Source of the DNA: Tubulanus polymorphus
Taxonomy: Eukaryota > Animalia > Nemertea
Length of the DNA: 64,000 bases
NCBI RefSeq assembly: GCF_964204645.1
Contig: NC_134026.1
Coordinates: 17,084,150 to 17,148,149 of the forward strand
Direction: 5' to 3'
The notes below the pieces were generated by a model that did no database searches, was not told where the DNA came from, and saw only the letters and a program-made list of their open reading frames with translations. The stretch's first letter is position 1. Each line of letters opens with the position of its first letter. Positions 13,465-63,204 of this stretch are shown here, piece after piece. The position numbers and the translations under genes were made by a program.

Positions 13465-13562
13465 CTTAAATTCCGTATCCTGTCGCTAACTTTCGCGTCG
13501 TGAAATGTAAAATCCTGATATTGCGTTGTGAGTTGTGCGTTAATCTGATGTTATTCCTAACA

Positions 13563-13581
13563 AATCCTGGTCACGGCACCA
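13563..13581 (-). promoter_or_regulatory. Primer binding site (tRNA-His)
   Basis: TGGTGCCGTGACCAGGATT directly after the 5' LTR, complementary to the 3' end of invertebrate tRNA-His. Confidence 0.85.
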
Positions 13582-36244: not shown

Positions 36245-38731
36245 TTAGTAGGGTAAACATGTACGTATCCACCGTATTTTTCTCTGGTTGAAATAAGCTA
36301 AAATCCTTGCAAATGGTATTTACAGTGGCTTATTTTTCAAACTTTCCCCGAGAAGCAGCCCAGACCCCTTTTCGATAGTTGTAGACTGCATATCTTTAAT
36401 AATTATTGTCCTTTCCATCGGGCGCTAAACCACGATATAAGCTCTGGATCCGCCCATGCTCAAGAAAGTGCGAATATTGCGTGTTTGCTTCAGTAATTGC
36501 AAAATCAGCGTTCCAGGCCAGAGGGCGAGAGGGTGTCACATAACACATCACCACTCATCACCACGCGTAATTTTTTTCTATATTAATGGGAGACAGAAAA
36601 ACATTCTTAGTGTCAATAAATAATGGAATAAAACCAACATAAAAACAATATGAAATTAAGAAATTATTTGATGATGTTTCACATGAAATTGAAACAGAGT
36701 AATAAAATTAGAAAAAATTAAAACTAAATATTGTGAAAAATATCAGCAAATTGAAGTTATTGTAATGTAAACACAGCAAAGTATTTTACCTGATAAATGG
36801 TCTACTATAGATTAAGGTGAAGTAAAAAAGATTTAGAAGGTTATAAAATAATTTATTCGGGGAAAAATGAAGATGGCCATTATGATTAAGAAATTATTGA
36901 ATGAATATTTAATAATATTTAAGTGCAATATATAACATTTAAGTGCATGAAATAAAAATAAGATAATCAATCTTTTGTAATGCTTTTTTTCACACTACGA
37001 GGACACAACAAGGAGAAAAAATGGATGATTTTTTTTAGAATTAAAAACGAGGACAAAACGAGGTGTGAAAAATTGATGATTTTTGGTTCGAAGAATGAGA
37101 ACCTAAGCTATCGTCAAGTTGCAGTCATGAAGTCACGTGAAAGGATCGGAAGATTTTTTTTTAGATCGAGTGATACGCCTCAATGAAATAGGTCCACATA
37201 CGTAATTCGCTTGTCTTACGAATATTATAATTATCATGATAGATATATTCAAATTCTCTGAATAATATCATTTTCTAAAATCATGCGTAATGAATGCCGA
37301 TTTAGCGGTTGGTTAAAACAAATCATTACATCTACTCGCGCATAATTACACCATCAATGCTGAGCCTGTTAAAGCGCCAGTAACCGTGCGTACAGCCATA
37401 CACACGTTGATGCCGACACCGGCTTCCACTTCAAAAGTTAAGAACAAAATATTAGAAATATTTGTGATCCGATTTACACGAAATAAACCTTCAAAGTAAG
37501 GTATTTAGCATCGGATATTGTGCCGAAAATTCTAGATTGATACACAACATAGTTTTTCCAATTATGTTGATTGACAGGCAGGCTCAGCTGCGCGCCTCAT
37601 TTCATTGATGACGTCAGATGTAAACAATAACATTACCACGTGCGCAATGCAAGCGGTAAACAAATTGAATTTTTTCAAACAAACTTCTCTAATGGAATAT
37701 CAATTTCTTTTCATAATTTGCCTTTCTTTTATGTGATTTATAATTTGTACATCAGACTTCGCTTCTTCGAACCCCAGGACTTTGAAGTCCTCTTGTTAAG
37801 AATTAAAAACGAGGTTAAGACGAGGAGTAAAAATTCAATGATTTTAAAGAACTAAAAACGAGAAGAATGAATTTTGATTTCTTTTTCTTTTCTAATTAAA
37901 ATGTTTGCTTAATAAATGGAAACAATTCAAACAATGCTTTATCAAATTGATGGTAATGAATTAAAAAATTTATTAGATTTAATGGAAATCAAACATTATA
38001 TTCCTTTCAATTAATTAGATATTAAGAAATCTTATACGATATATAACAGTAAATATTTAATATTAGATGGTGAAATATTTAGAATAATGGAATTAGTGAT
38101 GAAAATAATGACAAAATATTCAATACGTTATTAACTGATTTATTAGAACTTAGTGATTTAATTCATGAAATCAAACAATGTTTAAAAGGATCTAGTTTTC
38201 AAAGAAATAAGACAGCATATTTTCGTAGAGATTTTAATGAACTTTATTATTCAAACATTAAATAAAATCCTAAAATCAATTATTTAAACAATAATTCAGA
38301 TAATAAAACTTATGAAGACAAATCGATACAATGTGACTTAGAAAATGAAAAAATTGTTGAAATAATTGATGAAATTAATAAATTGTGAAAATATGATAGT
38401 AAATGTATATCTGTTGTTTCAGGCCAGAGGTCGGAAGGTCGAGTGAATAAAACGGAATATGAAAAGTAATATTAATTTCTAACTATAATATATATTCATA
38501 GTCGTGTGTATTACTACTAATAGATATGATAATAACTCAATAATTAATTTAGAATATGAAGGATTAAAAGGCAATAAATATAAATTCAGGAAAAACTTAC
38601 TACATAGAATCACTTATCAAGTGAAGATATTGAAAAATTATGTTCCGGTGATTTCTATTTCACATATAAAGGTAAGAATGAAAAAGGGCACCATGATATA
38701 GATTTCGAATTTAAAAAAATATGTAAAATAA

Positions 38732-39447
38732 ATGCAAGATAAATTAAAAGAATATAGATTATTTCTTGATTCTAGAAGACTTACAAATTATAAATCACAA
38801 AATTTGATAATACAACCAGATAGAGAATTTAAAAATTGTGTAGATTTATGATTAGTAAATACTAGTTTATGTAATTCTTTTTATAATATACCGGATAACT
38901 CTTGAACATTTAATTTTTTCAATCTTTGTTAGGAATAAGGATAAATGGCATCGTCTATTTTTGAAACCAGGATTATATAATTCTGAAACATTAGTGGAAG
39001 AAATTAATAGAAAAGCTCGGGTCAGATTAGGTTGTGATGGTGGATTTAACATTAGAATTTTAAAAAGTGATAGTTCCAATAAAATAAGGATTAGGTTAGC
39101 TCATGATGAAAGACATCATTTTTAGTTAAAAAACCTATAGCTAAACTGTTAGGAATTACACCAGATAAACTTTATTCAAATGTTGATACTAACCCAAACT
39201 TGAATAATTGATATTTTTTTTATAATAATAAATATGAATATAATTGTAGGACCGAGTATATGTTTTGAAGAGTATATGTTTTATATGTATATGTTTTTAC
39301 TTTCTTTGAGATTTCATGAATCAGATGAAGATTTTATTAATGATGATCTCAAAAACATTATAACTGAAATATATGATAATCATAAAAGTAGTGTTGAAAT
39401 AAATTATAACAAAGATAACTATATATTTTGAAGATAGTAATTTTTGA
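38732..39447 (+). pseudogene. Third, deleted copy of penton-like gene plus the following GPSICF gene
   Basis: MQDKLKEYRLFLDSRRL start and MNIIVGPSICF, homologous to 40135 and 40908. Confidence 0.8.
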
Positions 39448-40134
39448 CGCCTTATAAATCGTTACCATTATGACACCTAAAAAATGTTAACCATTCAGCC
39501 TCATTTTACAAACGACAACCGTAAATCGATGTGCAAAACGTTACAGGTCTATGTGTACACATACCAGCTATTTGGCAAAATATTATTGACAAAGATGTAG
39601 AATGGCTTCCTGTGATTATATAATAACCTCTATTTGAACGTCGAAATGTTATATTGCATTGAATATCATTAGAAGACGTAATGTAATAGTGTAATGGTTG
39701 TATTATTATATCAGAAACGGCAGGTATAAATAGAAATGATAAGTAAATCGGATTATTCGGTAAAATGGCGGATGTTTACAAGATGCGGAAGTCTGATATG
39801 AAAGTCAGACCCTGAAATGGGGATGCTGGTGGAATGACGAAGCTATCTACGATCCTCCGGTTCCTATTTTCGAGATTGGTAGAATTTACATTGGGCGCCT
39901 TAAATATAATGTGATTTCTGCCAATCATTGAAGGAGATCTCGTGAGACGGGGTCGCAGGGAATGTGAGTATAAATGACGGGGGATAAGCATCCCGTGGCG
40001 CCTTTCAATAATGGGATGCTTATCCCCTGAAAACTCTGTAGGTCGAGGATAGGGTAATTTTGCTAAAACTTATGAGAATATTTGGAAAAATGTTCATAAA
40101 ATTAATTTACCTAGTAATTTTTTTTGTTTAATAA

Positions 40135-40905
40135 ATGCAAGATAAATTAAAAGAATACAGAATATTTGTTGATTCTAGAAAACTTACAAATTATAAATCT
40201 CATAATTTACTAGTACAACTAGATAGAGAATTTAAGAATTGTGTTGATTTAAAATTAGTCAATGTAATTTTATGTTATTCTTTTCATAATATATCGAATA
40301 AAAGTCTTGATCATTTAGCTTTTAAAATTCATGTTAGAAATTTGAATAGATGGTTTCATCTTTATCTAAAACCAGGATTATATAATTTAGAATCATTAGC
40401 GCAAGAAATTGATAAAAGAGCTCGTTTAAAAATGGGTGCATCTAGTAAGTTTGAAATTAAATTTATTAAAAGTGATAGTTCGAGTAAAATAAGAATAAAA
40501 GTAGTTAATGAACGACATAGATTTCTAGTAAGAAAACCTTTAGCTAAACTGTTTGGAATTCTTCCAGATAAAGATTATTCAAATATTAATACTTATGCAA
40601 ATATAATACCTTACACACATTTCTATATTTATTGTAATTTAATTGATCCTACAAAAACATTTGAAGCAACTAAAGATACAATTTGTAATTCTAGTATATT
40701 AAATATTTTACCATTGAAAAATGTTAAACAATTTGGAACTCAAATAAATTATAATTTAGCTGAATGTGATTTTAAACCTTGTGTTTCACGATTTAATAAT
40801 TTCAAATTAGAAGTAAGAAATCATAATGGTAACTTAATTGATTTAAATAATTTTCCTGTAATTTATGAATTAGTTATAAGATGTAAAGAGTATTTTTATA
40901 TATAA
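40135..40905 (+). CDS. Putative minor capsid protein (penton), copy A, open ORF
   Basis: YIYCNLI...ILNILPL...FKP...LEVRNHNGNLIDLN..PVIYELVI C-terminal pattern typical of Polinton minor capsids. Confidence 0.65.
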   Translation: MQDKLKEYRIFVDSRKLTNYKSHNLLVQLDREFKNCVDLKLVNVILCYSFHNISNKSLDHLAFKIHVRNLNRWFHLYLKPGLYNLESLAQEIDKRARLKMGASSKFEIKFIKSDSSSKIRIKVVNERHRFLVRKPLAKLFGILPDKDYSNINTYANIIPYTHFYIYCNLIDPTKTFEATKDTICNSSILNILPLKNVKQFGTQINYNLAECDFKPCVSRFNNFKLEVRNHNGNLIDLNNFPVIYELVIRCKEYFYI

Positions 40906-40907
40906 AT

Positions 40908-41246
40908 ATGGATATATCAGTAGGACCGAGTATATGTTTTAGATTTGATTTCAAAAGTGAGAAAGAAATGAAATTTGGTATTAATGATGTCATAACTCAT
41001 ATCAAAAATATTGCATTTTTTAATGAAACAACATTTGATTATGAAACAACAATAAATAAAGAAACTTATATTGTAGAAAAGATTACTGATTTAATTAGAA
41101 ATTCTTTAAGATTTTATGAAGTAGACGAAGATTTTATTATCGATGATATTAAAAAAATAATAACTGAAATATATGAAAATGAAACGGATAATATTATAAA
41201 TGTTGATATCATAAATGCTATTACTAAGATAACTAAATATTTTTAA
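40908..41246 (+). CDS. Polinton hypothetical protein (GPSICF), copy A
   Basis: 112-aa ORF conserved with 54122-54478. Confidence 0.7.
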   Translation: MDISVGPSICFRFDFKSEKEMKFGINDVITHIKNIAFFNETTFDYETTINKETYIVEKITDLIRNSLRFYEVDEDFIIDDIKKIITEIYENETDNIINVDIINAITKITKYF

Positions 41247-41270
41247 GGTGGTTATTTTTTTTCTAAATAA

Positions 41271-44200
41271 ATGGCGGATCAGAAGTGGATAATAACTGGT
41301 TTATAGAATGGAACATTACTATCAGTTGGAACTGTTGGTTATATATACAATGTTATTGAAGAAAGTATTTTAAATGGGAAATATTTATGTTGATAGATTT
41401 GATATCAATGGTATTTTAAAATCAACATTAGCAGTTATTTTATCTAATTTAACAATTGATTATTAAGAAAAACAAAAATATATTCCTCCTATTGACGGGT
41501 AATTTATAGCTAACTATAATTATAAATATTATAGGATCGGCAATTGTTAACCCTTTAGCTTTTACTGGTGGTGGTTATTTATTTAAGCATATTGATAAAA
41601 ATGGTTCATTATCAGAACAAAAAAGGCATAACTTAGCATTAGAGAAATATAATAAAGCTGCAGAAGAGTATAGAGAAAAGAGACAAAATTATATGGATTA
41701 TATTGATAAAGAATTGTATAATCAAAATATTTCACATAGAGATTTTAAATCAGTCGATGATGCAATGAGGGTATATAACGCAGGAACAAATCGTGAAAAA
41801 TTACATCTATATAAACCTAAATTATCAGATTATTATACACCAAGTAAAGAACAACAATATGAAGTAATTTGGATTTTAGGTGGAACGGAACAGTTATTGT
41901 TATATTTGTTGCTTATAAATTTACTAATTAGTAATTTTTTTATGATATGAATGGAAGATAAAATTGATGGTGTTAATATTATTCCTCGTGATATAAATAA
42001 AACTAAATTAAAAATATATTTAGAAAAACAAATATTAGAATTTGAAAGTGACTTAAAGATAAAAAAAGAAAAAATATTTAAAAAGTAAAATTAAAAGTTA
42101 TTTTATTATTAGTGGTTCAGTAACAATTAGTTCTGTAATAACATTTCTTGAAATATTCAGTCCATTAACACCTTAAGCTATATCGATTGGCGTTTTAGGT
42201 TTAAGTTCAAGTGTTTTAACCGGAATTAGTTCAAAATTAAATATAAAAAGTAATAAAGAAAAAATAAAATATAATAAAAAAGAAATTAATAAATCAAAAA
42301 ATATATTAGATTATATTATTAGTTTAAATGGTAATATAACAATTGCAAAACAAGATAAACTATTAAAAGAATCAATTAATTATTAATTCTTTTGTTGTAT
42401 AAATGGTAGATAGTTTTCAAAAAGCTTTCCAATATAATAAATCAATTGAATATAATATTCCTGCACTAGATTTTAATAAAAATATAACATATAGAAATGA
42501 AGTTTTAAATTCATTACTTAATTTAGATATTTATGTTTCTGAAACTAATGATTTTAATGTTAAAATGGAAAATATATTTATATGTATACTTAATTAATTT
42601 AAAAAAATTGAAATTGATCATCAAAATCTGAAATATTGGCAGAACCAATTAAACTTTGCAGTTTATTGCGCAACAACAGGTTGTGAAATTAGTTGGAATG
42701 ATCATTTAAATAATTCAAAATATAAATTAATTCAAAGTTTTTTTAGATTTCATACTTATTTTCATATACGATTAATATTAAACGAATTAGAACTTGCTTT
42801 ACCAGGATCTACATATTTTAAAGAATTAGATAATAATATTAATTTATCAAAGTTTTATAAAGTTTGTAATGAACTTAATATAAACATAAATAATTCTGAT
42901 TTTCGAACAAAAATTGGAACGATAAGATCACTTCCTTGTCCTGAAAATATTTTATAATATTGCAAACTTCCCATACCATCTAACAGTTTTTATAATATCT
43001 ATAATAATAAATTAGGTTATGGTAAAGTAGGAAATATGGATTTAAAAACATTAAATTTCAATAAATTACCGAAATTCTATGATAATTTAAAACAAGAAAA
43101 CAATAATGGTTGGGTTTATTTTATTTTAGAAAAATAGTGAAGGATTTACAAAATCAGGTATACAAAGAATAAATCAATCACAGGTTGAAACAAGATCCCC
43201 AATAATTGGAAATTTAAATACATCATTTGATACACAAAAACAATTCAAAGTATTATTTGAAGATTCTATTCATAATGATAAAAATAGATCGATTCCAGAA
43301 AATATAGTAAGACATCAATATTATTTAGATAAATCTCATGTAAGATTAAATTATTGTATAGGTCCTAATTTATTAATTATTTCTGATGATTTAATATTAA
43401 AAATGGGAAATATAATTGGTTATAATAATTTGATTAAAAACTGCACCAATAAATAATTCATTTGGATTAAATGATATAGATAAAAAAATTATCACTGCTC
43501 CAAAATTAATGGAAGGTGAAAAAATAAAAAAATATATACAATCAACAGAAACTAAAACAAAGAATATTAAATTAAATAATGTTTCTAAAATAAAAGATTA
43601 CAATACATCAGAAAATATAAAAACTGATAATATTCAACATGAAATAATTAAAATTAATAATGATAATAAATCACATGAAAATACTGAATTAGCTATTACT
43701 TGTATAGGCATTATAATAGGAGGAATATTATGTTTTAAACTTTAATTTTTTTATCACATAAATGGAAGTAGAAGGTGGAGAAGAAATTGGAATGGATACC
43801 TTTGATGAACCCGGTATAACTGAAAAACCACAACCTGATTTTAATGAAACAAGTTTTAGTAACTATAATGAAACAGCATTCTAATTTAGCAAGACCTGAT
43901 ACTAATGAATATGTTAATAAAGCACGTTCAAGATTGAATATTGATAATGAAAATCCATATTTAGTAAAAAGAATTAGGATATGATGAATTAACTGAAAAA
44001 TTTAAACCAATATTAAAAAATCTGGATTCAATATAACTAATAAAGGTATGAATTATTTAGTAAAAGATTTGAAATATTTAAATGGTGATTATTATTAGCA
44101 TTTGAAAGATGACTATTATTTTAAGATATCTTCTAATAAGTCTTGATAAAATATAATCAAAACCAACTTTAATTAAATTAGAACAATCTAGAATTAAGAA

Positions 44201-45188
44201 AATCAATAATGATGTTAAAACTGATGTTACAGAAGAAATAATTAATAATAAAAGAATATTTAATCGATGAAATAATAATGATTTTTTGAAGATAATTAAT
44301 GAAAATTTAGAACAAGAAACAATTCCTAAAGAAAGTATTAATTCCAAAACTAGTAAACTTAAATCAACCGAAGTTCAAACTGAAAAACTTTTACCTGAAG
44401 GATTATTGGACGCAACAGGTCAAGCAATAGAAGCTTTAAGTAAATATTTTTCTGAAAAAGTAATTAGAGAAAGTGAAGGTGTAAGAAATGAAGCTGATAA
44501 AATTTCTGAGATGAAATTAGAAAGAGATCAAAAAATTAATACTTTAGAAGATAAATTATCTAGAGCAAATGAAGAATTAGAACAATTAAAGTCTGATTTA
44601 AATCATCAAGTAATTGATGAAATGGAATATAAGCAAACAAAATTAAGTTTAGAAAAAGAAATTGATAATTTAAAATATAAAATAGAAGTACAGAAAGGTG
44701 AAAGAGATATATTATTAAAAGAATTTGGTAATAATTTTAAAAGATTAAAAAATATTTTGAAAAGATGTTTAATAAAACCAAATTCTAAAGTATCATTTAA
44801 GGGTAGAATAAAATTATTATTTAAATTAGAAGGTATAACAATTCTCTCAATTCTAACAGCTGTAACAATGATATATACAACAATTGGTTTAGCTATATCA
44901 AATTCATTAAGATCTACACCTACCCCTAATAAGCCAGATAACCCCCCGTAATAATTCTATACAGGATAAAGTTAAAGATGGTTTAAAAAAATTAGCAAAA
45001 TATTCATGGGAACTATCTAAAAAATCTGCTGCACCATTACCCGGAATTATTGCATCAATTGTTAGTTTTGTTTTAAAATCTGCTGGAAACATTATTAGTT
45101 TTGCTGCTGAACATATTATTTTATTTTTAATTACAGTTGTAAGTGCAATTATTTTTGGATGAGTAAACATGATGAAAAATAAATAAGT
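41271..45188 (+). pseudogene. Copy A of five Polinton membrane/structural genes, disrupted
   Basis: Colinear homology with 54479-58412; many stops and frameshifts. Confidence 0.8.
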
Positions 45189-45205
45189 CATTTATTTCTT
45201 AATAA

Positions 45206-46400
45206 ATGAGTGGGAGTTATATAAATCCTTCTAAAAATTCTAGAATATCTAACGCAATTAAATCAGAAAGATCTCATCATATAATTACTCATAATCCATC
45301 TAATATTAATCCTGATGAAACTTTATATGTAAGAATTCCTCGATTAACACAAAATACTTGGTTGTTCCAAATAGTATTTATTTATCAGCTGATATGAAAG
45401 TAACTGGTCATGATAATAATTACGTTGTCGATAATGTTGGAAGATATTTAATTAAAACATTAATTGTAAAGATTGGACCAGAAACCGTTTTTCAATAAGA
45501 TGATTATAATTTATCTACGCATTATAAAGATTTATGGTTAACAAAAGAAAATAGAAATAATATGATATTTCAAGGTATTCAATCAGAAAATCAAAATATT
45601 TTTAGATCAGAAGCTAATAATGCAGTAGTAAATAATGCCAAAATTTGTAAATTTTCCATTACACTTTGAATTAATAAAAAATAATGCGCCTTTATATAAA
45701 TATGCAATACAAGAAGATATTATATTCGAAATAACATTTGCTCCTGTTAATGAAATTGTATTTTCTAGCGTTATTAAAGATATGGATTATAAATTATCAA
45801 ATATATGTTTAGAATATGACAAAATAACTGATGAAAATATTGCGAGCACAATTCAAACTCAATACAATCAAGGATTTTCATTATTATATGATTATGTTGA
45901 TAAATTTAAAACTGTAACTATTAATGCAAATGATGAAATAATAAATGAGAATATCAACTTCCCAAGAAGATTTAATCAAGGTATATTAATACTTTTTACC
46001 ATTGCAACATATTCTGATGGTGCAATAAAGGTTGATAATTATTATAATCCTGAAATAACAAAAGTAGAAATAACAATTGAAGGTATAGCAAATAAAATAT
46101 TTTGTCAAGGAATGAGAATGATAGATTTTATGAATGGAAAAAATAAAATCATCTGAAGATTGTAATATTAATCAAATTGATTATTATACTGGTAATAAAT
46201 ATGCATTATGGTTAGATTTTAGAACGACAGAGGATAACTTATTACATGGTTCTGGGAAGAAATTACAAAATACAAAAGATGGAATACAATGATTCGTGAA
46301 AAAGAAAAAAGGAGGTTTAAATTATAAGATGCATATTTATATTATATCTGACGCGCAATTAAATATTATAAATTCTTAATTAGATAGTATTCAATATTAA
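45206..46400 (+). pseudogene. Major capsid protein (double jelly-roll), copy A
   Basis: ITHNPSNINPDETLYVRIPRL; LWLDFRT..D..LHGSG; paralog of 58433-59684. Confidence 0.75.
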
Positions 46401-46430
46401 GAATATAAATATAAAATTAACGATGTATAA

Positions 46431-46626
46431 ATGGGGGATAAAAAAACTCCTAATACTAAAGAACAATATTTAAGAAATTTATATTATAACCCTGAGAGTT
46501 CGGTTGCTTATTCTTCTGCAAAAAATATATGGCGCCAAGTAAAACAAGATAAATTAGATAAGACAATCCCACAAAATTTAGTTAAATATAAAGATATAAA
46601 TGATTTTATGTAAGAACAACCAACAT
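46431..46626 (+). pseudogene. Truncated integrase N-terminus, copy A
   Basis: LRNLYYNPESSVAYSS, matches 59715-59910 then ends abruptly. Confidence 0.85.
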
Positions 46627-46908
46627 CATCACAGCTAGGCTCTAGTGAGAACGGACGATTGCTCTATGATACACATATACAGTGAGTGCGCGTAACAACA
46701 ACTGCGCGTGGATATATCGATACAGTGAGTCGCTACTGAGAACGGTTATTAACGCGTGTGCTATTACTGTAGTACAATGATTGCGTGTCAACTGTGCCCG
46801 GATAAATAGATGCTGTGAGGCTTGGGTGAGAACGGTTAATAGCGTGCTTGTTATATACAAGGGGAAGTAATCCCCACTCATCACCACAAGTATTTTTTTT
46901 CCTTATAA

Positions 46909-49900: not shown

Positions 49901-52025
49901 AGAAAATAAAACCGAAAGATCATGTTTTTACAGAAAAATTAATACTTACTCAAAATAATAAATACAATTATATTGTTCATTATAGAATGTTAAAATTTCA
50001 TCTAAAACAAGGAATGAAATTAAAGAAAGAACATAGATATATTGAATTTAATCAATCGAAGTGGTTAGAAAAATATATAGATTTCAATACTCAACAGAGA
50101 ACAATATCTGAAACAGATTTTGAAAAAGATTTTTTTAAATTAATGAACAATAGTTTTTATGGTAAAAACATGTGAAAATATTAGAAATAGAAATGATATT
50201 GAATTAGTAAATAATTCTGAAAGATTGAGACATTTACAATCAAGTCCTAGACATTTAGGAAATAAAAAATTTGAAGATTATTTAACTGCAGTGAAATTAA
50301 AAAGAACGTCAATGAAATTTAATAAACCTATATTCATTGGTTCAACTGTTTTAGAAGTATCAAAATTATTAATGTATGATTTTAATTATAATGTTTTACA
50401 ACCACTTTTTGGGGAAAAGCATATTGAAATATTATATTTTGATTCTGTAACAGCTGACACCCCAATATTATTAAAATGTAATGATAAAATATTGATAAGA
50501 AGAATTTCAGAAATAATTCCAAAACAAAATGAATGTTATATTTCATATGGTGAAAAAGAATTAATACAAATAAATTGTTTAATGGATGTTTGGACAAGAA
50601 ATGGATGGAAAAAATTAAAGAATATTATTAGGCATAAAAGAAATAAGAAAATCTATAGAGTTAGAACTAAATTAGGGTTTGTAGATGTTACAGAAGATCA
50701 TAGTTTAATTAAACGAAATGGTGATGAAATAAAACCAACTGATATAAAAATTGGGGATGAATTATTACATAAGAGATTTTTCCAAAGAATGAATCATATG
50801 TCATTCGACGAAATTATTGATAATATTTATAATATAGAACCTGAAACATTAGAAGAAAAAGAATATTTTATCCAAGGATTTTTTTTATGGGAGATGGTTC
50901 AGCAGGTGTGTATAATTATGTTAGTGGTAATAAATATTGTTGGTATTTATGCAATCAAGACTTGAAATTATTAGAAAGAATTAAGAAATTCTGTGAAGAA
51001 GTTTATTCGCACAAAGTTTTTAAAATCATAGATGTTATGAAATCATCGCAATGTTATAGAATACATGTGAATAATCCTAAAGATTTTGCTATAAAATATA
51101 ATGACGAATTCTATATTCATGCAATAGTGAAAAGTAATACTTCAACTAAAGAAAAGATAGTACCAGATTATGTATTAACTGCAAAAGATAATTTAAGAAA
51201 ATGGTTCTTCATTGGATTTTATGCTGCAGATGGTTCAAAAAGTTTCAAAACAATATCTTTAGCTCAAAAAGGAAAAGTTGCTATATCAGGGTTAAATATA
51301 TTATGTAATTCATTAGGCTTCAATATGAATATTGGATTATTAAATCTAAACCAAATTGTTTTAATTTAAGCCACACAGAAAAAGATTTAACTGAAGAAGT
51401 TAAAGATTTATTTGAAATATATAACCCATCAGATTATGTCTATGATTTATCAACTGAAGATGGCACATTCAACTGTGGATTTCCATTAATTTGATTCAAT
51501 ACTGACGCCTACATACTAAAAATCAAGACAAATGACATAACAAAAGACTTAAAAACATTAAAACATCATTTTGATTTTAGGAATTATCCCAAAGATCATG
51601 AACTATTTAGCAATGATAATAAAAAGATTCCTGGTAAATTTAAAGATGAATTAGGGGATGATGAAATTATTGAATTTGTTGGGATAAGAAGTAAAATGTA
51701 TAGTTACAGAACAAAAGATCGTGAAGCTAAAAAGTTAAAAGGAATAACAAAACATGTGGTTGATAAACATGTAGAATTCCAAGATTATATAAAGTGTTTA
51801 TATAACTCAATTGTAATGAAACATAAAATGAATTGTTTAAGATCAGAAGATCACGAGATGTACATTAATGAAGTTGAAAAAACTAGTTTGAATCCATTTG
51901 ATGATAAAAGGCATATTTTAGATGATGGTATAAAACATTACCTTATGGTTATTAAAATGGATCAATATCATCAAACTCGAAATCACTATTGGTTTCTTCT
52001 TTTTCATTTAATTGTTCTTGTATAA
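46909..52025 (+). pseudogene. polB: Protein-primed family B DNA polymerase with N-terminal Zn fingers, endonuclease VII-like domain and an intein; disrupted
   Basis: Exo I YGDFES, Exo II FHNLSGYD, Exo III YLKSDV, Pol A IDANNLYGWAM, Pol B KLMNNSFYGK, Pol C YFD|TDA, KMYSY; several stops and frameshifts. Confidence 0.95.
50444..51500 (+). mobile_element. Intein with LAGLIDADG homing endonuclease in PolB motif C (degenerate)
   Basis: Block A SVTADTPI, block B VDVTEDHSL, endonuclease blocks GFF-MGDGS and FFIGFYAADGS, block F DYVYDLSTEDGTF, terminal Asn then Thr+1. Confidence 0.92.
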
Positions 52026-52026
52026 T

Positions 52027-53278
52027 TTATTTAGGTTCTTCCATTTCATTTTTCTCATTTAAATAAAGTTCTATCTTGTACCACATTTCATCTCGCTGTC
52101 TTTGTTTCTTTTTGTTCGTTAATTCATCAAATGGAATTATAATATCGATGTTTAAATAATTTACTATCTTATTTAAAAAGAATTCATAATTAATTGAATC
52201 TGTTATTCTATTATCCACATAATATCTTAATATTTGTTTGAATGTTTCTTTTATATTTTCCATATCTTTTTCTGTTAATTTAGGTTTTTTATAATAATCG
52301 TTAAATAATAAATATAAATACATTTCCTTTTCTTGTGTGTTGAATGTTGATGGAATAATTGTTTTTATTATATCTTTTTTAGTTATTTCACCATTTTTAT
52401 TTTCTATTATTTTCATTTTTTCAAGCCATTGCTTATATTCTGGTGTATGATCTTCCATAGAAAATATCTTAAATATTTCATCTAGATAATTTGATTTTGG
52501 TTCTATAAGAATATTTCTAGTTTTTTCATCACCCCATAAATTCTTTTGCCATCCACATTCATTACAAAATATCACCGGACCTTCTTGTCTTAAGTACTCA
52601 TAAATACATTTTGGGCATTTTTGTCTATCATTTCTTAGTAATAGATCTTCGTTAAGCTCTTGGTATTTTCTTACGTTTTCTTTATGTTTTATTGTTCTAT
52701 TATGTAGATTTGAATTACTTGTTGTAATAATCAATTTACAATATTTACAATAATATGTTTTTCTTGTTAATTCATTATATTGTTTTTCTAACTTTTCAAC
52801 TGTTTCTTTATTATCTGGTAACGTTTTCTCATATTTTATTTTTTCTAATAAACTATTTTTTCTTTCATTGAATTCAGTTTTAAATTTATTAGAAATTTTA
52901 TCTATATGTACTTTACGAAATTGATGATTCTCCCAATCTTCTATATTTTCAGGACTAAATTTCATTCGACAAGGCTCGCAGAAATGATCTTTTACATTAT
53001 CCTTATCATAGAATAAGAAAGGTCTTTTCCAAATAACTTCAGGTTCAACTTCAACAGAATTACTATTACTTTCGTTACTATCAACATTAACCGTTGCGTC
53101 ATTAATTTTACACTTCTCTGAATGTTTTTTAACATAATTTCTTGAGAATAATTTATTACATTTTGGGCAGTTTATTTTAGGGGGGTTTATAATTTTCATC
53201 ATGTTTTTTCATATGTCGAGCCATATTACTTTTTCTTAGAAGTTCACCAGAAATTTCGCATGGTATCTTCTCATCCAT
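52027..53278 (-). CDS. Zn-finger protein with C-terminal VLTF3 (poxvirus late transcription factor)-like domain
   Basis: 391-aa ORF 52027-53202 (probable true start 53278, frameshifted); several C2H2 fingers; CPKC..CNECG ribbon; INYEFFLNKIV...KKQRQRDEMWYKI. Confidence 0.6.
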
Positions 53279-53345
53279 TTATTTAGGAGAAATTTTATTA
53301 AAATTAATTTTTAGTGATGGGCGGTAATTTTTTATGTTATAAATA

Positions 53346-54105
53346 ATGGTAGAATTAAAAGAATACAGAATATTTGTTGATTCTAGAAAACTTACAAATT
53401 ATAAATCACATTATTTATTAGTACAATTAGATAGAGAATTTAAGAATTGTGTTGATTTAAAATTAGTAAATATAAGTTTATGAAATTCTTTTTATAATGT
53501 ATCGGATAAAAGTCTAGAACATTTAATTTTTTTCAATCTTTTACAAAAAAAGGAATAAATGGTTTTTTATATATTTAAAACCAGGATTATATAATTTAGA
53601 TACATTAGCACAAGAAATTAATAGAAAAGCTCGAGCTAAATTAGGAAGTGATTCCGGATTTAGTATTAGATTTTCAAAAAGTAATAGTTCTAATAAAATA
53701 AAGATTAGGTTAGCTCATGACGAACAATTTAAATCTACAGTAAGAAAACCTTTAGGTAAACTGTAGGAATTAACCCAGATATTGTTACAGTAAACGCAGA
53801 AGGTAGATCAAACGTTAATACCTTACACACATTTCTATATTTATTGTAATTTAATTGATCCTAAAAAAACATTTGAAGCAACTAAAGATACAACATGTAA
53901 TTCTAGTATATCAAATATTTTACCATTAAAAAATGTTAAACAATTTGGAACTCAAATAAATTATAATTTAGCTGAATATGAATTTCAACCTTGTATTCCT
54001 CAATTTAATAATTTTAAATTAGAAATAAGAAATCATAATGGATATTTAATTGATTTGAATAACTTTCCTGTAATTTATGAATTAGTTATAAGATGTAAAG
54101 AGTAA
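53346..54105 (+). pseudogene. Putative minor capsid protein (penton), copy B
   Basis: Homologous to 40135-40905, with stops and frameshifts. Confidence 0.7.
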
Positions 54106-54121
54106 TTTTTTTGATATATAA

Positions 54122-54478
54122 ATGAATATAACTGTTGGGCCGAGTATATGTTTTGGGTTTGATTTTAAACGTGAGAAAGAAATGAAATTTAACATTAATG
54201 ATGTAATAACACATATCAAAAATATTGCATTTTCTAATGAAACAACATTTGAGTATGAAACAACAATAGATAAAGAAACTTTAAATGTAGAAAAGATTAC
54301 TAATTTAATTAGAGAATCTTTAAGATTTTATGAATTAGATGAAGATTTTATCATCGATGATATTAAAAAAATAATAATTGAAATATATACAAATGAAACT
54401 AGTAATGAAATAAATGTTGAATTAATCATAAATAAGTTAACTAAATATTTTGAAGATAGTAATTTTTTTGATAAATAA
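54122..54478 (+). CDS. Polinton hypothetical protein (GPSICF), copy B
   Basis: 118-aa ORF, TAAATG start. Confidence 0.7.
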   Translation: MNITVGPSICFGFDFKREKEMKFNINDVITHIKNIAFSNETTFEYETTIDKETLNVEKITNLIRESLRFYELDEDFIIDDIKKIIIEIYTNETSNEINVELIINKLTKYFEDSNFFDK

Positions 54479-55148
54479 ATGAGTGATAATAAGTGGATAA
54501 TAAACTGGATTATATAATGGAGCATTACTATCAGTTGGAACTGTTGGTTATTCAATGGTATTAAAAAAAGTATTTAAAATGGGAAGTGTTAATGTTGATA
54601 GATTTGATATAAATGATATTTTAAAATTAACATTAGCAGTTACTTTATCTAATTTAACTATTGATTATTTGGAAAAACAAAAATATATTCCTCCCATATA
54701 AATGCGTAATTATTTTACTAAATAAATGGCTTCTGCCGTTATAACTATTATATGATCGGCAATTGTTAACGCTTTAGCATTTACTGGTGGTGTTTATTTA
54801 TTTAAGCATATTGATAAAAATGGATCATTAACAGAACAAAAAAGGCATAACTTTGCATTAGAGAAATACAATAAAGCTGCAGAAGAATATAGAGAAAAGA
54901 GGCAAAACTATATGGATTATATTAACAAGGAATTATATGATCAGAAGATTTCACATAGAGATTTTCAATCAGTTGATGATACAATGAGTTTATATGACGC
55001 GGTTACCAATAAAGAAAAATTACATCTATACAAACCTAAATTATCAGAGTATTATACCCCAAGTAAAGAACAACAGAAATATGAAATAATATGGATTTTA
55101 GGCGGGACAGTTATTGTTATATTTGTAGCGTATAGATTTACTAATTAG
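54479..55148 (+). pseudogene. Two small Polinton hydrophobic proteins (starts 54479, 54726)
   Basis: NGALLSVGTVGYSMVLKKVF; AIVNALAFTGG..LF...EQKRHN.ALEKY; duplicated in copy A. Confidence 0.65.
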
Positions 55149-55167
55149 TAATTTTTTTGCTAAATAA

Positions 55168-55602
55168 ATGGATGATAAAGTTGATAATATTGATATTATT
55201 CCTCATGATGTAAATAAAACTAAATTAAGAATATATTTAGAAAAACAAATATTAGAATTTGAAAATGATTTAAAAGTTAAAAAGAAAAAATATTTAAAAA
55301 GTAAAATTATATATTATTTGATTATAAGTGGTTCGGTTACAATTAGTTCTGTAATAACATTTCTAGCAATATTCAGCCCATTAACACCTTTAGCTATATC
55401 AATTGGTGTATTAGGATTAAGTTCAAGTGTATTAACCGGTATAAGTTCAAAATTCAATATAAAAAGTAATAAAGAAAAAATTAAAACTAATATAAAAGAA
55501 ATTAATAAATTAAAAAATACACTAGATTATATAATGAGTTTAAATGGTCATATAACAGTTGGAGAACAAGATAAATTATTAAAAGAATTAATAAATTATT
55601 AA
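55168..55602 (+). CDS. Polinton coiled-coil/transmembrane protein
   Basis: 144 aa with a central long hydrophobic hairpin; duplicated at 41952. Confidence 0.7.
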   Translation: MDDKVDNIDIIPHDVNKTKLRIYLEKQILEFENDLKVKKKKYLKSKIIYYLIISGSVTISSVITFLAIFSPLTPLAISIGVLGLSSSVLTGISSKFNIKSNKEKIKTNIKEINKLKNTLDYIMSLNGHITVGEQDKLLKELINY

Positions 55603-55618
55603 TTTTTTAATTATATAA

Positions 55619-56944
55619 ATGGTAGATAGTTTTCCAAAAGCTTTCCAATATAATAAATCAATTAAATATAATATTCCTGCAATAGATTTTAATAAAGATA
55701 TTTCATATAGAAATGAAGTTTTAAATTCATTAATTGATTTATATATTTATGTTACTGAAACTAATTATTTTAATGTTAAGATGGAAAATATATTTCATGT
55801 GTATACAATTAATTTTAAAAATTTAAATGAGGCAAAACAATGGTTATTAAAATCTAATATGAAGTATTGACAGAACCAATTAAATTTTGCTGTTTATTGT
55901 GCAACAACAGGATGTGGAATTAGTTGGAATGATCATTTAAACAAACCAAGTTTACCATTGATGTTATCACTCTTTAGATTTCATACATACTTTCAAACAA
56001 AATTAATATTAGATGAATTAGAATGTCCTTTACCAGGTTCAAAATATTTTAAAGAATTGAATAATAATATTAATTTTTCTAAGTTTTATAAAATATGTAA
56101 TGAATTTAATATTAATTCAAATAAAGATTTTAGAGCATAAATTGGAACGATAGGTGGATTAGGAATATTATATACTAAAGAATTTGGAAAAATAATGGCA
56201 AATTCAGATATAAGAACACTAAATTGGAATGAATTACCAAAATATTATAATAATATACAACAACAAAACAATAATGGTTGGGTTAATTTCATTTTAGAAA
56301 ATAGTGAAGGTTTTACTAAAGCTGGAATACAAAGAATAAATCAATCTATTAGAACTTATTTGATATGTATTTTAGGCGCTCAAGTTGAAACAAGATCCCC
56401 AATAGTTGGAAATGATAACACTTCATTTGATGCGCAGAAACAATTCAAAGTATTATTTGAAGATTCCATTCATAATGATAAAAATAGATCGATTCCAGAA
56501 AACATTGTAAGATATCAAAATTATTTAGATAAATCTCATGTAAGACTAAATTATTGTATAGGCCCTAATCCATTAATTATTTCTAATGATTTAGTACTAA
56601 AGATGGGAAACATAATTGGTTACAATAATCTAATTAAAACTGCAACAATAAATAATTCATTTGGATTAAATGATATAAATAAAAAGATTATTACTGCTCC
56701 AACATTAATGGAAGGTGAAAAAAATAAAAAACATATTCAATCAACAGAAACTAAAACTAAGAATATTAAATTAAATAATGATTCTAAAATAAAAGATTAC
56801 AATACATCAGAAAATATAGAAACTGATAATATTCAACATGATATAATTAAAACTGATAATGATAATAAATCCCATGAAAATGCTAAATTAGCTTTAACTT
56901 GTATAGGAATTGTAATCGGAGGAATATTATATTTTAAATTTTAA
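55619..56944 (+). pseudogene. Polinton conserved protein with C-terminal TM anchor
   Basis: QNQLNFAVYCATTGCG, FRFHTYFQ, RINQSIRTY..CILGAQ; ends LALTCIGIVIGGILYFKF; internal stops. Confidence 0.75.
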
Positions 56945-56960
56945 TTTGTTTATTATGTAA

Positions 56961-58412
56961 ATGGAAGAAGGTGGAGGAGATATTTCAATGGAAGGCATTG
57001 GAAATAATAATGAAGGATATATTGATGATGATTGTAATGATGAAGAAACTAATATTGATAATGATGATGAATCAGCATATAATTCTAATTTAGCAGATAG
57101 TGGTTCTAAAGCCCCATCAACAGTTGAATTTGATAGAAGCAATAAATCGAGAATAAATACTGAAAATTTAAATCCAGATTTATTAAAAAGAGAATTAGAA
57201 TATGAAAATTTAACTGATAAATTCAAACCAATATTAGAAAAATCTGGATTCAGTATAACAAATAAAGGTGTGAATTATTTAGTAAAAGATTTGAAATATT
57301 TAAATGGTGATTATTATTGGCATTTGAAAGATGACCATTATTTTAAGATTTCTTCTAATAAAAGTCTCGATTAAATAATAACAAAATCAACTTTTATTAA
57401 ATTAGAACAATCTAGAATTAAGAAAATCAATAATGATGTTATAACTGATGTTACAAAAGAAGAGATAACTCTAAATAGAAAAGAATTTATTCGAAGAAAT
57501 GATGATTTTTTGAAGATAAATAATGAAAATTTAGAACCAGAAACAATTCCTAAAGAAGTTCATAATTCCAAAACTAGTAAATTTAAATCAACCGAAGTTC
57601 AAACTGAAAAACTTTTACAAAATGGGTTACTTGATGCAACAGATCAAGAATTAGAAGATTTAAATATATTTTCTGATGAAGCAATTAGAGAAATTATTAG
57701 TATAAGAAATGAAGCTGATAAAATCGCGAATGATAAAAGTATAAGAGATTTTAAAATTAGAACTTTAAGGAGGAATTAATTGATAAAAATAAAGAAATAG
57801 AACAATTAAAGTCTGATTTAGATCATCAAGTAATTGATGAAATAGAATATAGGCAAACAGAATTACGTTTAGAAAAAGAAAAAGATGATTTAGAATATAA
57901 CATAGAATTACAGTAAGAAGAAATTAAATTATTATTAAAATCATATGATTATAATATTAATAGATTAAAAGTTATTTTTAAAGATTTGTTGATAAAAACC
58001 AAATTCTGAAATATCATTAAAAGATAGAATAAAAGTATTATTTAAATTAGAAGGAATAACAATTCTTTCAATTCTAACAGCTGTAACTATGTTATTTACA
58101 ACAATTGGTTTAGCTATATCAAATTCACTGAAATCTACTCCTACTCCCAATAAACCGGATAAACCCCCAAATGATAATAATTCTATACAAGATTAAGTTA
58201 AAGATGGTTTAAAGAAATTAGCAAAATATTTATGGGAACTATCTAAAAAATCTGCTGCAGCTTTACCAGGAATTATTGCATCAATTGTTGGTTTTATATT
58301 AAAATCTGCACGAAACATTATTAACTTTGCTGCTGAACATAATATTTTATTTTTAATTACAGTTGTAAGTGCTATTATTTTTGGGTTAGTGAATATGATA
58401 AAAAATAAATAA
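56961..58412 (+). pseudogene. Polinton acidic/coiled-coil membrane protein
   Basis: Acidic N-terminus, coiled coil, EGITILSILTAV..., AAALPGIIASIV hydrophobic C-terminus; duplicated at 43762. Confidence 0.7.
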
Positions 58413-58432
58413 TTAATTTTTTTGTTAAATTA

Positions 58433-59684
58433 ATGAGTGGGCGTTATATCAATCCTTCTAAGAATCATAGAATATCTAATGCTATTAAAGCAGAAAGATC
58501 ACATCATATAATTACTCATAACCCTTCTAATATTAATCCCGATGAAACTTTATATGTTAGAATCCCTAGGTTAACACAAAATACTTTTTATGTTCCAAAT
58601 AGTATTTATTTATCAGCCGATATAAAAGTAACTGGTAATAATAATAATTATGTTGTTTATAATGTTGGAAGATATTTGATAAAAAAATTAACAATAAAGA
58701 TTAGTCCAGAAACAGTTTTCTCATTAGATGATTATAATTTATTTATGCATTTTAAAGATTTATGGTTAGCTAAAGAAAATAGAAATAATATGATATTTCA
58801 AGGAATCCAATCAGAAAACCAAAGTAAATTAAGATCAGACTCTGATAACGCAATAGTAACTAATGCTGTAGATAACTTAATAAAAAAGATTTATGGAAGC
58901 AAATATAAAATTCCATTAGACTTTGAATTGATAAATAATAATGCACCTTTATATAAATATGTAATTCACGAAGATATTATATTTGAGATAACATTTGCTC
59001 CTGTAAATGAAATTATATTATCTAGCGTTGTTAAAGATATGGGTTATAAATTATCGAATATATGTTTAGAATATGACAATATGAAGTAACTAATGAAAAT
59101 ATTGCTAACACAATTCAAACTCAATACAATCAAGGATTTTCATTATTATATGATTATATTGATAAATTTAAAACTGTAACTATTAATGCAAATAATGAAA
59201 TAATTAATGAGAATATTAACTTCCCAAGAAGATCTATTAAAGGTATATTAATATTTTTACCATTGCAACATATTCTAATGGCGCAATAAAGGTTGATAAT
59301 TATTATTATCCTGAAATAGCAAAAGTAGAAATAACTATCGAAGGAATAGCAAATAAAATATTTTGTCAAGGAATGAGAATGATTGATCAATGGCCAGAAA
59401 TTAGGAAACATTTTATGAATGAAAAAGTAAAATCATCTTGAAATTGTAATATTAATTAGATTAATTATTATGCCGGTAATAAATATTCATTATGGTTAGA
59501 TTTTAGAACAACAGAGGATAATTCACTACATGGTTCTGGGAAAAAACTACAGAACACTAAAGATGGAATACAATTATTCATGAAAAAGAAAAAAGGAAGC
59601 TTAAATTTCAAAATGCACATTTATATTATATCTGACGCACAATTAAATATTGTAAATTCACAATTAGATAGTATTCAATATTAG
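58433..59684 (+). pseudogene. Major capsid protein (double jelly-roll), copy B
   Basis: ~415 codons; THNPSNINPDETLYVRIP, Y.LSNICLEYD, LWLDFRT, LHGSG; frameshifted after 59080. Confidence 0.75.
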
Positions 59685-59714
59685 AAATATAAAGTTAAAA
59701 TTAACTATATATAA

Positions 59715-60844
59715 ATGGGCGGTAAAAAAAACTCCTAATATTAAAGAACAATATTTAAGAAATTTATATTACAACCCTGAGAGTTCGGTTGCTTATTCTT
59801 CTACCAAAAATTTATGGCGTCAAGTAAAACAAGATAAATTAGATAAGATAATCCCACAAAATTTAGTTAAATATAAAGATATAAATGAATTTATGTTAGA
59901 ACAACCAACATATACAACACATAAAAAAATTGTTAGAAAATATAAAACTCGTAAAACTATGGTAAGTTATGTAGATCAACAATGGCAAGGAGATTTAATT
60001 GATATGAAAAATGTTAAGAAAGATAATGATGATTATTGGTGGTTATTGAATATAATTGATATTTTTAGTCGTTATGTATGTAGCTTCCCACTTTATAGAA
60101 AAGATGCTGCACAAACATCAAATGTTTTAAGAAAATTTCTTTCGGATGATAAACTAAAACCAGAAAAAATACAATTTGATGATGGAAAAGAATTTGATAA
60201 TTCACTTGTTCATGAACTCTTAGATAATCATAATATTAAATATTTTTCAACAAAATCGGATAAAAAAGCAGCAGTTGTTGAACGATTTAATACAAACATT
60301 AAGAACAAGAATGTGGAAATATTTTACAGCAAATAATACTTTTAAATGGATTGATGTTTTACCAAAATTGATAGAAGGATATAATAATTCTTATCATTCT
60401 TCTATTGGAATGAAACCTATTGATGCTAGAAATCCTGAAAATGCTGAAATTGTTTGGAATAATTTATATGGGGCATTTCTTGTAGATGATTTTGGTGAAC
60501 CTAAATTTAAAGTTGGTCAAAATGTTAGAATTTCTAAGTATAAAAAGATGTTTGACAAAGTATACGATCGAAATTTTACTAGGGAAATATATAAAATAAA
60601 AAAGGTAATAACAACAAAACCATATGTCTATAAATTAGAAGATTTAAATGGTGAAGAAGTTGATGGGTATTTTTATGAAGAAGAATTGAGTTTAACTACT
60701 GAAAATCTAGAACAAGAATATAAAATTGAAAAAGTATTAAAAACAAAAACTGTTAAAAGATAAAAATATTCTTTAGTAAGATGGGTTGGATGGCCAGATA
60801 AATTCAATGAATGGATATTATCAAGTAAAATTAAAAATATATAA
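59715..60844 (+). pseudogene. Retroviral-like (rve) integrase with C-terminal chromodomain
   Basis: QWQGDLIDM, IDIFSRY, QFDDGKEF, VVERFN; LVRWVGWPDKFNEWI; frameshifts. Confidence 0.93.
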
Positions 60845-61448
60845 ATGAATAATAAGGAATTATTTATATTTGAGCCTCATAATATGTCAATTTCTGGCGT
60901 AACAAATTGTGGAAAAACTTATTTTATATTAACATTATTAGAAACTATTTATAAAAACTATTTTGATAATATAGTATTATTTTGTCCAACACATGAATTT
61001 AATCAAACTTATGATAATATTACTAGAAATAATAAATTTATTATATTAGATCCTAAAACAGTAAAAGAAAATTTAGATAATTGTATTAAAATAGCAATTG
61101 ATATTTATAAAGGATCCAATACATTATTCATCATAGATGATTGTGCTAATCTACATGATTCAAAAGTTAGAGAAAGTGAGTTATGCTATTTAGCTTTCTC
61201 TGGGAGACATTTTGGGATAACAACATGGGTTTTAAATCAAAAATATAATTCAATTGTTGAAGACTTTAGGGATAACATAAGATTTTTAGTATTATTCTAC
61301 AATAAAGATATCGATGAAAAAGGCACTTGAAGAAAATGATATAATTCCACATAATTTACGTAATGAATATATTGATAAATTGAAAAAAAATAAAAGATCA
61401 AAATTACTATTTGGATTACAACACCCATTTAAATATGAATTTATTTAA
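60845..61448 (+). pseudogene. A32/FtsK-like DNA packaging ATPase
   Basis: Walker A GVTNCGKT, Walker B LFIIDD, SGRH motif; frameshift near 61315. Confidence 0.9.
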
Positions 61449-61449
61449 A

Positions 61450-61735
61450 TTCAACTGGTTTGTTAATCTAGTTGAATTCTAGTTACATTCTAGTTGAATT
61501 CTAGTTATTGGTAGTTGAAAAAAAAATCAAATAAAATTCAACAATATTTTAACTAGCTTGTTAATCTAGTATATTTTTAGTTACATTCTAGTTGAATTCT
61601 AGTTATTGGTAGTTGGAACAAAAATCAACTAGATTTAACAAGAAATAAATAAAAACAACAATATTTCAACTATCTTGTTAATCTAGTTGAATTCTAGTTA
61701 CATTCTAGTTGAATTCTAGTTGCAACAACACAACT
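61450..61735. repeat. Intergenic tandem/palindromic repeat array
   Basis: Three ~110-bp units built from CTAGTTGAATT / CTAGTTACATT 11-mers. Confidence 0.85.
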
Positions 61736-61753
61736 AATTTGTTTGTTATATAA

Positions 61754-62633
61754 ATGGGAGGTGAAAAGAAAATAAAAATCTAAAAATGGTGATGTTCCAA
61801 TTGAAAAAACTTTAGATGATTTAGGAATAACAGAAACAGAATTAACTCCAGATGATGGTGCTTTAAATAATGTTACAACAAATAATAATTATGAATATTA
61901 TCTTTATTGTAAACATCAATTAGAAATATTAATAGCATCTGGAAAATGTAAAAATTTTATCGGTAAAAATTTAACTTATAATGAATTCGATACAATGAAA
62001 TTATTAGATTATTTAAGATTTATGAAACCGCGAGAACAGCTAGAATTAATGACGCGATATCAGAAAATGTAGTAAAAGGTTATAGTAAATTATGTAGTTA
62101 TATGCTGCCAATTCAAGATGAAAATAGATTATATGCTGATTTAAAAAATGATTATTTAGTTATGACTGAATTAAATAAATGGATTGGTTATTTATCATTT
62201 CAATTAGGTGGATTTATGACATTATTATCAACTGGAGTTATTACATTTTCAAATATTGAAAGTAAAAATATTTCTATAATAAATGAGCAAGGTGGAAGAA
62301 GTGAAGAAAAAACCGAGAACTCAGAAACAAATTGAATGGTCTCGGCAATTAGGAATTAAATCACAAGAATATAAAAAAGCTGTAAAAGAAAAAATAAGTA
62401 ATAAAAACGGTGAAAATATTGTTATTTCTACTCCTTCTAATAATAGAATATATGATAAATGTCTATATTTTACAGTTGGATTTGTAATTGTATTCATTTT
62501 GATTGGGCGTAATTGGTATAAGAAATCAAATAAAATTTATGATATTAATAATTCTGAAACAACTGCTATCAAAAATGAAAATACTTCTGAAATTCCAAAA
62601 TTGACAATAAAAAAAAATGGATTAATATTTTAG
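61754..62633 (+). pseudogene. Two Polinton hypothetical genes with hydrophobic segments (starts 61754, 62283)
   Basis: TAAATG starts; LYADLKND..; RTQKQIEWSRQLG and TM CLYFTVGFVIVFILIG. Confidence 0.6.
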
Positions 62634-62789
62634 ATAAAAAGCAAAAAAAATAATTTTTTTTAATTAATTGAATATCACCATGTGGGTGCCATACGGCACC
62701 ATCTCACTACTTTTGTCTATCTATGCGGAGCAATTAAATTGTCCAGATAAGTCATTTCGGATTCTAGATATTCATTATTATTATTAATT

Positions 62790-63117
62790 TATTTTTTTTA
62801 AATTAATCAACAATTTCTAAATCATGATGGCCATCTTCATTTTTTCCATGATAGATTATTTTAAATCCTTCTAAATCTTTTAATTCCTCTGTACTCAATG
62901 AAACCCATTTATCCATACATTCTCGCGACGTACTAACATTGCAGTAGCTTAAATTAGCTCATACTTTCTCTCCATATTTAGTTTTTATCTTTTCTAATTT
63001 CAATATTTTATGTTCAATTTCTTTTGTAACATCAACTAACTTTTTTATTTCAAATTGTTTTTTTGCTGGTTTTATTCTGTTATTTATTGTTGCTAAGAAT
63101 GCTTTTCTATCTCCCAT
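62790..63117 (-). pseudogene. Small terminal Polinton gene (inverted homolog at 36586-~36915)
   Basis: MGDRKAFL.. versus MGDRKTFL..; both follow the motif CCACTCATCACCAC. Confidence 0.55.
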
Positions 63118-63204
63118 TTATAAGGAAAATAAATTACTTGTGGTGATGAGTGGTGTCTCGTACTCTCGTACTCTGGTATGAAAACGCCATTTCCTAATTA
63201 CTTA

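Follow-up and report, generated by a model that had tools for sequence, protein, structure and literature searches.

The window analysed here is a 64,000-nucleotide stretch of the genome of the nemertean Tubulanus polymorphus (NCBI RefSeq assembly GCF_964204645.1, contig NC_134026.1, positions 17,084,150 to 17,148,149 of the forward strand), and coordinates below are positions within it unless a relative locus is named. It contains a decayed multicopy Polinton-like provirus, the right-hand element (46874..63153), in which nearly every gene opens with a T-run followed by TAAATG. Judging from sequence, we consider it probable (roughly 0.6) that this element is a virophage-like parasite, and that the T-run and TAAATG form a poxvirus-type late promoter, on which a co-infecting poxvirus-like helper would act with its RNA polymerase.

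A first-pass annotation of the window had proposed that the viral genes start almost uniformly at TAAATG, and this holds on recounting. All 21 coordinates that it listed are ATGs directly preceded by TAA, and 13 of the 15 starts in the right-hand element carry the full motif, the exceptions being 53346 and 58433. The enrichment is pronounced both against other ATGs (34/641 on both strands, or 5.3%; binomial p = 2.5e-15) and against the 7.5% expected from local A/T make-up (p = 2e-13), while the share in the host part of the window is 4.3%. In-frame internal ATGs are a biased control, since TAA cannot precede them. For 14 of the 15 starts, the gene has a counterpart in intact relatives, as shown by tblastn to loci L003 and L052 and by alignment with the homologue P0045; visual inspection of L003 DNA revealed the short gene at 54479, and gene identities and starts agree with those of L003. 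The exception at 58433, the capsid-gene start, is particular to this copy: of 753 genomic reads that stem from other copies, 739 have the motif form there. T frequency reaches 0.73–0.93 at positions −16 to −10 of the window starts. The intergenic gaps are also short, as had been noted, with 7 of 11 same-strand gaps spanning 0–24 nt; tblastn to L003 and L052 puts the gap at the integrase end at 0 nt too. Among the eight left-hand sites, six are paralogous starts of a copy ~84% identical to the right-hand element, one of these starts being present a third time, at 38732; these sites are therefore not independent and add little. In that left copy, six of eight identifiable starts are TAAATG, those at 40908 and 41951 being different, and several listed starts belong to genes disrupted only a few codons in.

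The motif was followed into 62 metagenome loci fetched by capsid alignment, whose open reading frames (ORFs) were clustered and whose shared-gene starts were kept if the length fitted the family. Near-duplicates (L002, L012, L017 and L044; the capsid start of L017 is TGAATG) and short fragments were left out. No relatives came from IMG/VR when it was scanned with the capsid and ATPase alignments and with a polymerase. In 16 relative loci with a GC content of 20–44%, TAAATG is found at 46 of 51 starts, including 19 of 21 in loci with at least 33% GC; in 19 other relative loci none of 70 starts has it, 26 of these being from loci below 37% GC. These two groups were drawn after the counts were known, which makes the contrast partly circular, and the capsid tree serves as the independent check. 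In this tree, 17 motif-side rows cluster (81/96), with L025 apart on a long branch; the motif label requires two changes across its 33 rows, and the AU test does not reject a single clade (p-AU 0.18), which is not thereby proven. The motif is retained down to 33–38% capsid identity to the first sequence of the alignment (L029 and L035). Its distribution follows lineage, and AT richness does not account for it. Two motif-bearing relatives encode a deoxynucleoside kinase (L003:10340-10981, E 2e-31; L008:2898-3380, E 4e-31), a gene more typical of large DNA viruses. The heterogeneous L015–L061 group, which does not use TAAATG, has A at −3 and an excess of ATATAG/TATATA 5–27 nt upstream. This TATA signal occurs at 37 of 70 starts of the non-motif relatives versus 23.1 after shuffling, over many positions, and at 1 of 11 in L026; as a lead only, it recalls TATATA, an asfarvirus late promoter element (PMC5294985; this and the other publications below are cited from the portions available of each).

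The annotation had likened the motif to a poxvirus late promoter, and the finer architecture agrees with a poxvirus post-replicative promoter: TAAAT overlaps the ATG, and T peaks at −12/−13 (0.79/0.76 over 33 non-divergent starts), 9–10 nt before TAAAT. In vaccinia late promoters, TAAAT followed by G overlaps the start codon, and the tenth nucleotide upstream is a conserved T (PMC11980589), and a T-containing core 5–7 bp from TAAAT is described for vaccinia promoters (PMC5294985). In six motif loci, only 15–30 nt separate divergent ATGs, so that leaders would have hardly any space. T occupies position −3 in 90% of motif-side starts, against A in 74% of the starts of other relatives. Animal genes usually prefer a purine there. 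The further suggestion that intergenic T-runs act as TTTTTNT early terminators did not hold up. The signal follows the stops of 4 of 46 genes (3.9 after shuffling), its depletion is not specific to the coding strand (coding z −4.1, reverse strand z −5.3), and the T-run, which is present also at the first genes after the termini, is fixed in position to the downstream ATG, so that a terminator is not supported. With the next start masked, AATAAA after stops shows no excess either (8/46 against 10.6 expected); an apparent excess was rejected as an artefact of overlap with the next start.

A reverse-strand gene (52027..53278, −), which starts at TAAATG and is broken near its 5′ end, encodes a zinc-finger protein with a C-terminal Zn ribbon and a helical VLTF3/A2-like domain. 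Its last 100 amino acids match Pox_VLTF3 at 27.2 bits (cut-off 25; E 3.8e-6), and Atlas places the protein with VLTF3 clusters at 0.97, at a recognition value below that tool's usual level. The structure model of the protein (pLDDT 79.7) has poxvirus A2 as its top named fold matches: cowpox, D. longicaudata and M. sanguinipes poxvirus take ranks 1, 3 and 4 (E 2e-6 to 6e-5), rank 2 being unnamed, and VLTF3 proteins of mimivirus, marseillevirus and pithovirus type rank behind them at E 8e-4 or weaker. A fold search of the PDB gave a cyclin/TFIIB-type match, at best Z 6.8 to chain M of the yeast Pol II pre-initiation complex and below the tool's trust level, while a PDB sequence search returned zinc-finger matches only. 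No significant match was found to a profile of 11 VLTF3s from iridovirus-like contigs. A word search of IMG/VR with the VLTF3 region returned nothing, and a full HMMER search gave four matches, of which three are real family members. The copy in the window has no match in the left element or in the fetched loci, the L003 orthologue being cut by the contig end. VLTF3 in polintons has already been reported (PMC11131425).

From these observations, the following mechanism may be proposed. The RNA polymerase of the co-infecting poxvirus-like helper would read the genes of the element, initiating within TAAAT, and its slippage would produce a poly(A) leader, by a mechanism as in yeast pGKL elements (PMC6211774), with the proposed consequence that the ATG acquires A at −3. 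All genes, including polymerase and integrase, would be expressed in the post-replicative phase of the helper, in the way that late promoters of the helper serve Sputnik and Mavirus. The A2-like protein may help to recruit or divert the helper polymerase, and integrated copies would stay silent until helper infection. The suggestion of the first-pass annotation that a large-virus polymerase may transcribe the element is supported in part: promoter architecture, lineage restriction and the A2-like factor speak for it, while the TTTTTNT terminator falls away and TAAATG is not exclusive to poxviruses.

Several points weigh against this interpretation. No helper genome was identified, an IMG/VR scan for the promoter pattern giving 19 matches, two of them in giant-virus bins where many starts bear the motif. 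Giant viruses whose capsids are iridovirus-like themselves use TAAATG at 0–50% of starts (59 of 80 loci, those of at least 8 kb). Relatives without the motif are packed equally tightly, with divergent gaps of 12–63 nt, which makes short gaps a family trait. The VLTF3 assignment is borderline by sequence: in the Pfam scan, the whole 53278 protein had no match at E 0.01 and its homologues P0045–P0047 had none, and similar length may help the A2 ranking. L016, which does not bear the motif, has an unrelated-looking VLTF3-like gene (L016:5082-5579, E 3.6e-5), so that motif and VLTF3 are not tied. A spread to tens or hundreds of germline copies would need explaining under helper dependence, as would the reading of nuclear DNA by a cytoplasmic polymerase. 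Finally, mriyaviruses keep VLTF3 while lacking an RNA polymerase and are thought to be nuclear (PMC11253617).

One alternative, which we consider unlikely, is that the helper is a giant virus other than a poxvirus with its own polymerase, for example an iridovirus-like one whose late genes also start at TAAATG. The capsid of the two giant-virus bins found by the pattern scan is iridovirus-like (E 9e-117 to SGIV); the bins encode an RNA polymerase of their own and have TAAATG at 7/16 and 6/14 ORFs (~40%) of loci that were selected by the pattern. In contigs related to them the share reaches 50%, with TAA far commoner than TAG or TGA. Low-GC loci with iridovirus-like capsids use it at 44 of 218 unique starts and show a comparable A-then-T profile. 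The loci with such capsids (L076, L079 and L082–L169) split into AAAATG-using and TAAATG-using lineages. TAAATG in these viruses implies that the motif points to a large-virus polymerase and not to poxviruses alone. However, its context there is mostly AATAAATG, with G at +4 in 9/44 and 1/25 starts against 69% in the lineage of the element; their capsid genes do not start at TAAATG; and the VLTF3 of the element resembles poxvirus A2 and not theirs. What favours a pox-type helper is the spacing, together with G at +4 and the likeness to A2.

Also improbable, in our assessment, is an autonomous element, whose own TFIIB-like VLTF3 would redirect host Pol II to start at TAAAT in the nucleus. The cyclin/TFIIB-type helical fold of the VLTF3-like protein (the Z 6.8 match below the trust level), an integrase with a chromodomain and the high copy number are consistent with such a scheme, and the polymerase-less mriyaviruses provide a precedent (PMC11253617). 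Yet no excess of Pol II polyadenylation signals is seen, the VLTF3-like copy is unmatched in the left element and in the fetched loci, where the L003 orthologue is truncated by the contig end, and the spacing matches vaccinia specifically. T at −3 also disfavours initiation unless an A leader replaces it.

We regard it as very unlikely that TAAATG is a translation signal, whether through stop-restart coupling, an in-frame stop guarding the start, or the host start context. TAA is always in frame with the ATG, the gaps are short, and true stop-start junctions do exist, with TAA being the stop of the upstream gene in 2 of 13 window starts (54479 and 60845) and in 2 of 51 relative starts (upstream ORFs of at least 80 aa counted). 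Against this, the 51 relative starts are preceded by TAA in 46 cases and by TAG or TGA in none, whereas gene stops comprise 33 TAA, 10 TGA and 9 TAG. The motif also stands at the first genes after the termini and at divergent genes that have no upstream ORF, it comes with a positioned T-run, and other relatives use A at −3; the motif is not stop-start coupling. Chance in AT-rich DNA, which the 21–27% GC of the element might invite, is refuted by the local-composition test (p = 2e-13) and by the counts in relatives, where the motif is kept at 44% GC and absent at 26–29% GC.

Poxvirus-type transcription by a helper, the reading we prefer, can be set against known systems. Animal Mavericks/Polintons (Polintoviricetes; adintoviruses, PMC8502044) likewise encode a double jelly-roll capsid, an A32 ATPase, an rve integrase and a protein-primed family B DNA polymerase (pPolB) and occur in many copies; their inverted ends would correspond to the 44-nt inverted match of the element. 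It differs from them in that Pfam detected no adenain-type protease and that almost every gene opens with a pox-type start motif. Elements of corals, hydrozoans and bivalves that fall outside the two main groups have been mentioned (10.64898/2026.06.19.733378). Virophages and helper-dependent Polinton-like viruses (PLVs), such as Mavirus with CroV, Sputnik with Mimivirus and PgVV-14T with PgV, have no RNA polymerase of their own, and Pfam detected none in the ORFs scanned here; they too carry a large-virus promoter motif upstream of their genes, Sputnik and Mavirus using late promoters (10.1101/2022.07.28.501842). These have protist hosts, Mimiviridae-type helpers and the motifs AAAATTGA and TCTA, in contrast to the animal host and pox-type motif of the element. 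The entomopoxvirus-associated PLVs of Barth et al. (PMC11296320) are Polinton-like viruses proposed to parasitise poxviruses, as here; they come from occlusion bodies and all have an adenovirus-type protease. The available portion of that paper contains no occurrence of 'promoter', 'motif' or 'TAAAT'. Vaccinia late and intermediate promoters share with the element TAAAT over the ATG, a T-rich block ~10 nt upstream and a short A/T spacer (PMC11980589, PMC5294985). Unlike in vaccinia, the motif here sits on a 16-kb integrating element with no detected polymerase of the RNA type, and on every functional gene class, and no signal of early type emerged. Among the pPolB elements pGKL1/2, virus-like elements of the yeast cytoplasm, the smaller relies on the polymerase of the larger, which means that a helper need not be a large virus, and to our knowledge they have neither capsid nor integrase. 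Their TAAAN initiator yields poly(A) leaders, like the mechanism proposed for the element, from which they differ in using an early-type upstream element (PMC6211774).

The remaining genes of the right-hand element are as follows. The pPolB gene (46909..52025, +) lies in several pieces with a TAAATG start (PF03175, E 4e-13) and contains an intein with a LAGLIDADG insert at ~50447-51500 (intein E 0.007, LAGLIDADG E 7e-4). The insertion point is the YFD/TD polymerase motif. PolB inteins at the YFD/TD site are known from giant viruses. The insert is missing from the L052 polymerase, where the match breaks at residue 1117, and genomic read depth over it falls below that of the flanking polymerase, so that only some copies may carry the intein. 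The available portions of PMC8502044 and PMC11131425 contain no occurrence of 'intein'. Beyond the VLTF3/A2-like gene follow conserved gene F8 (53346..54105, +; ~250 aa), a candidate minor capsid protein whose start has no exact motif, and six conserved genes (54122..58412, +) with starts at 54122, 54479, 54726, 55168, 55619 and 56961, each with a T-run and TAAATG and with gaps of 0–24 nt; that at 55168 is SLATT-like by a weak match (E 0.005). The broken major capsid gene (58433..59684, +), whose start in this copy deviates from the motif, encodes a double jelly-roll fold according to the model of its intact homologue P0001 (77% identical; pLDDT 86.6), which matches SGIV, PBCV-1 and mavirus capsids at E 1e-16 to 1e-11. 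The rve integrase (59715..60844, +; PF00665, E 5e-10) is broken and has a TAAATG start, and its stop is the TAA of the next start; the integrase of L003 ends in a C-terminal chromodomain. The A32-like packaging ATPase (60845..61448, +; PF04665, E 2e-12) also starts at TAAATG. Non-coding direct repeats at 61450-61721, between the ATPase and the next gene, form the sole long spacer in the element. Three conserved genes of unassigned function (61754+, 62283+ and 63117−; 61754..63117), all with TAAATG, complete the set. No adenain-type cysteine protease was matched by Pfam among the scanned ORFs of the element or of relative loci, several conserved genes being unassigned and F7 without an Atlas match, and no RNA polymerase subunit was found by Pfam in the 43 + 34 + 53 proteins scanned, with small unassigned genes remaining.

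In the window, host DNA of 35–51% GC is followed by a block of 21–27% GC at ~37.9–63 kb. The boundaries of the right-hand element were drawn from self-blast and the ORF list, and most of its genes have stops or frameshifts. Its eroded inverted ends (46874-46916 and 63110-63153; 44 nt at 93% by self-blast) contain the promoter of the first gene at either end, and no target-site duplication was located. Pieces of at least three further copies adjoin or sit inside each other at 36549-46873, of which 46627-46873 has no assignment. The left-hand paralogous element (40079..46626, +) is ~84% identical to 53280-59911 and stops inside its own integrase; a remnant of a further copy (37910..39445, +) has TAAATG starts at 37916 and 38732 and a different start at 39234, with no homologue assigned to the ORF at 37916; and an end fragment of another (36549..36900, +) is 77% identical to 62807-63155, inverted. 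A host repeat at 39439-39854, with a copy at 31307-31713, interrupts one element piece. Read depth over the element is ~170–1040 against 2–6 over a G protein-coupled receptor gene (one genomic run, 85% likeness), a ratio that, with a single-copy baseline of two bins only, suggests roughly 30 to 400 related copies. That receptor gene (26272-27582, −) is a single-exon member of the rhodopsin family (E 3e-21), for which a homologue search gave no close homologue. A Pao/BEL retrotransposon (7505-13822) has an open 1678-aa frame and long terminal repeats that are 99% identical, indicating recent insertion. The unit at 14369-16184, with 309-nt inverted repeats that are 91% complementary and separated by 1198 nt, is likely a non-autonomous DNA transposon.

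The word 'promoter' does not occur in the available portions of PMC11296320, PMC11131425, PMC8502044, 10.64898/2026.06.19.733378 or 10.1101/2024.03.23.586382. We found no published report of a TAAATG start motif in polintons in a search that left supplements and most subscription journals outside, so that a prior mention is possible. More tentatively, and at somewhat short of even odds, an entire lineage of animal Polintons may consist of endogenous virophages of as-yet-unseen poxvirus-like viruses, whose identity the promoters and the captured A2-like factor would record; its sister lineage, in which a looser TATA(T/G/A) signal lies close to the ATG, may have adapted to another helper, one like an asfarvirus. 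If dependence on a poxvirus-like helper is correct, a helper-type promoter would explain the silence of Polintons, and the hosts would be predicted to harbour undiscovered poxvirus-like viruses. Germline Polintons would then be candidates for an inducible antiviral role such as integrated virophages play in protists.

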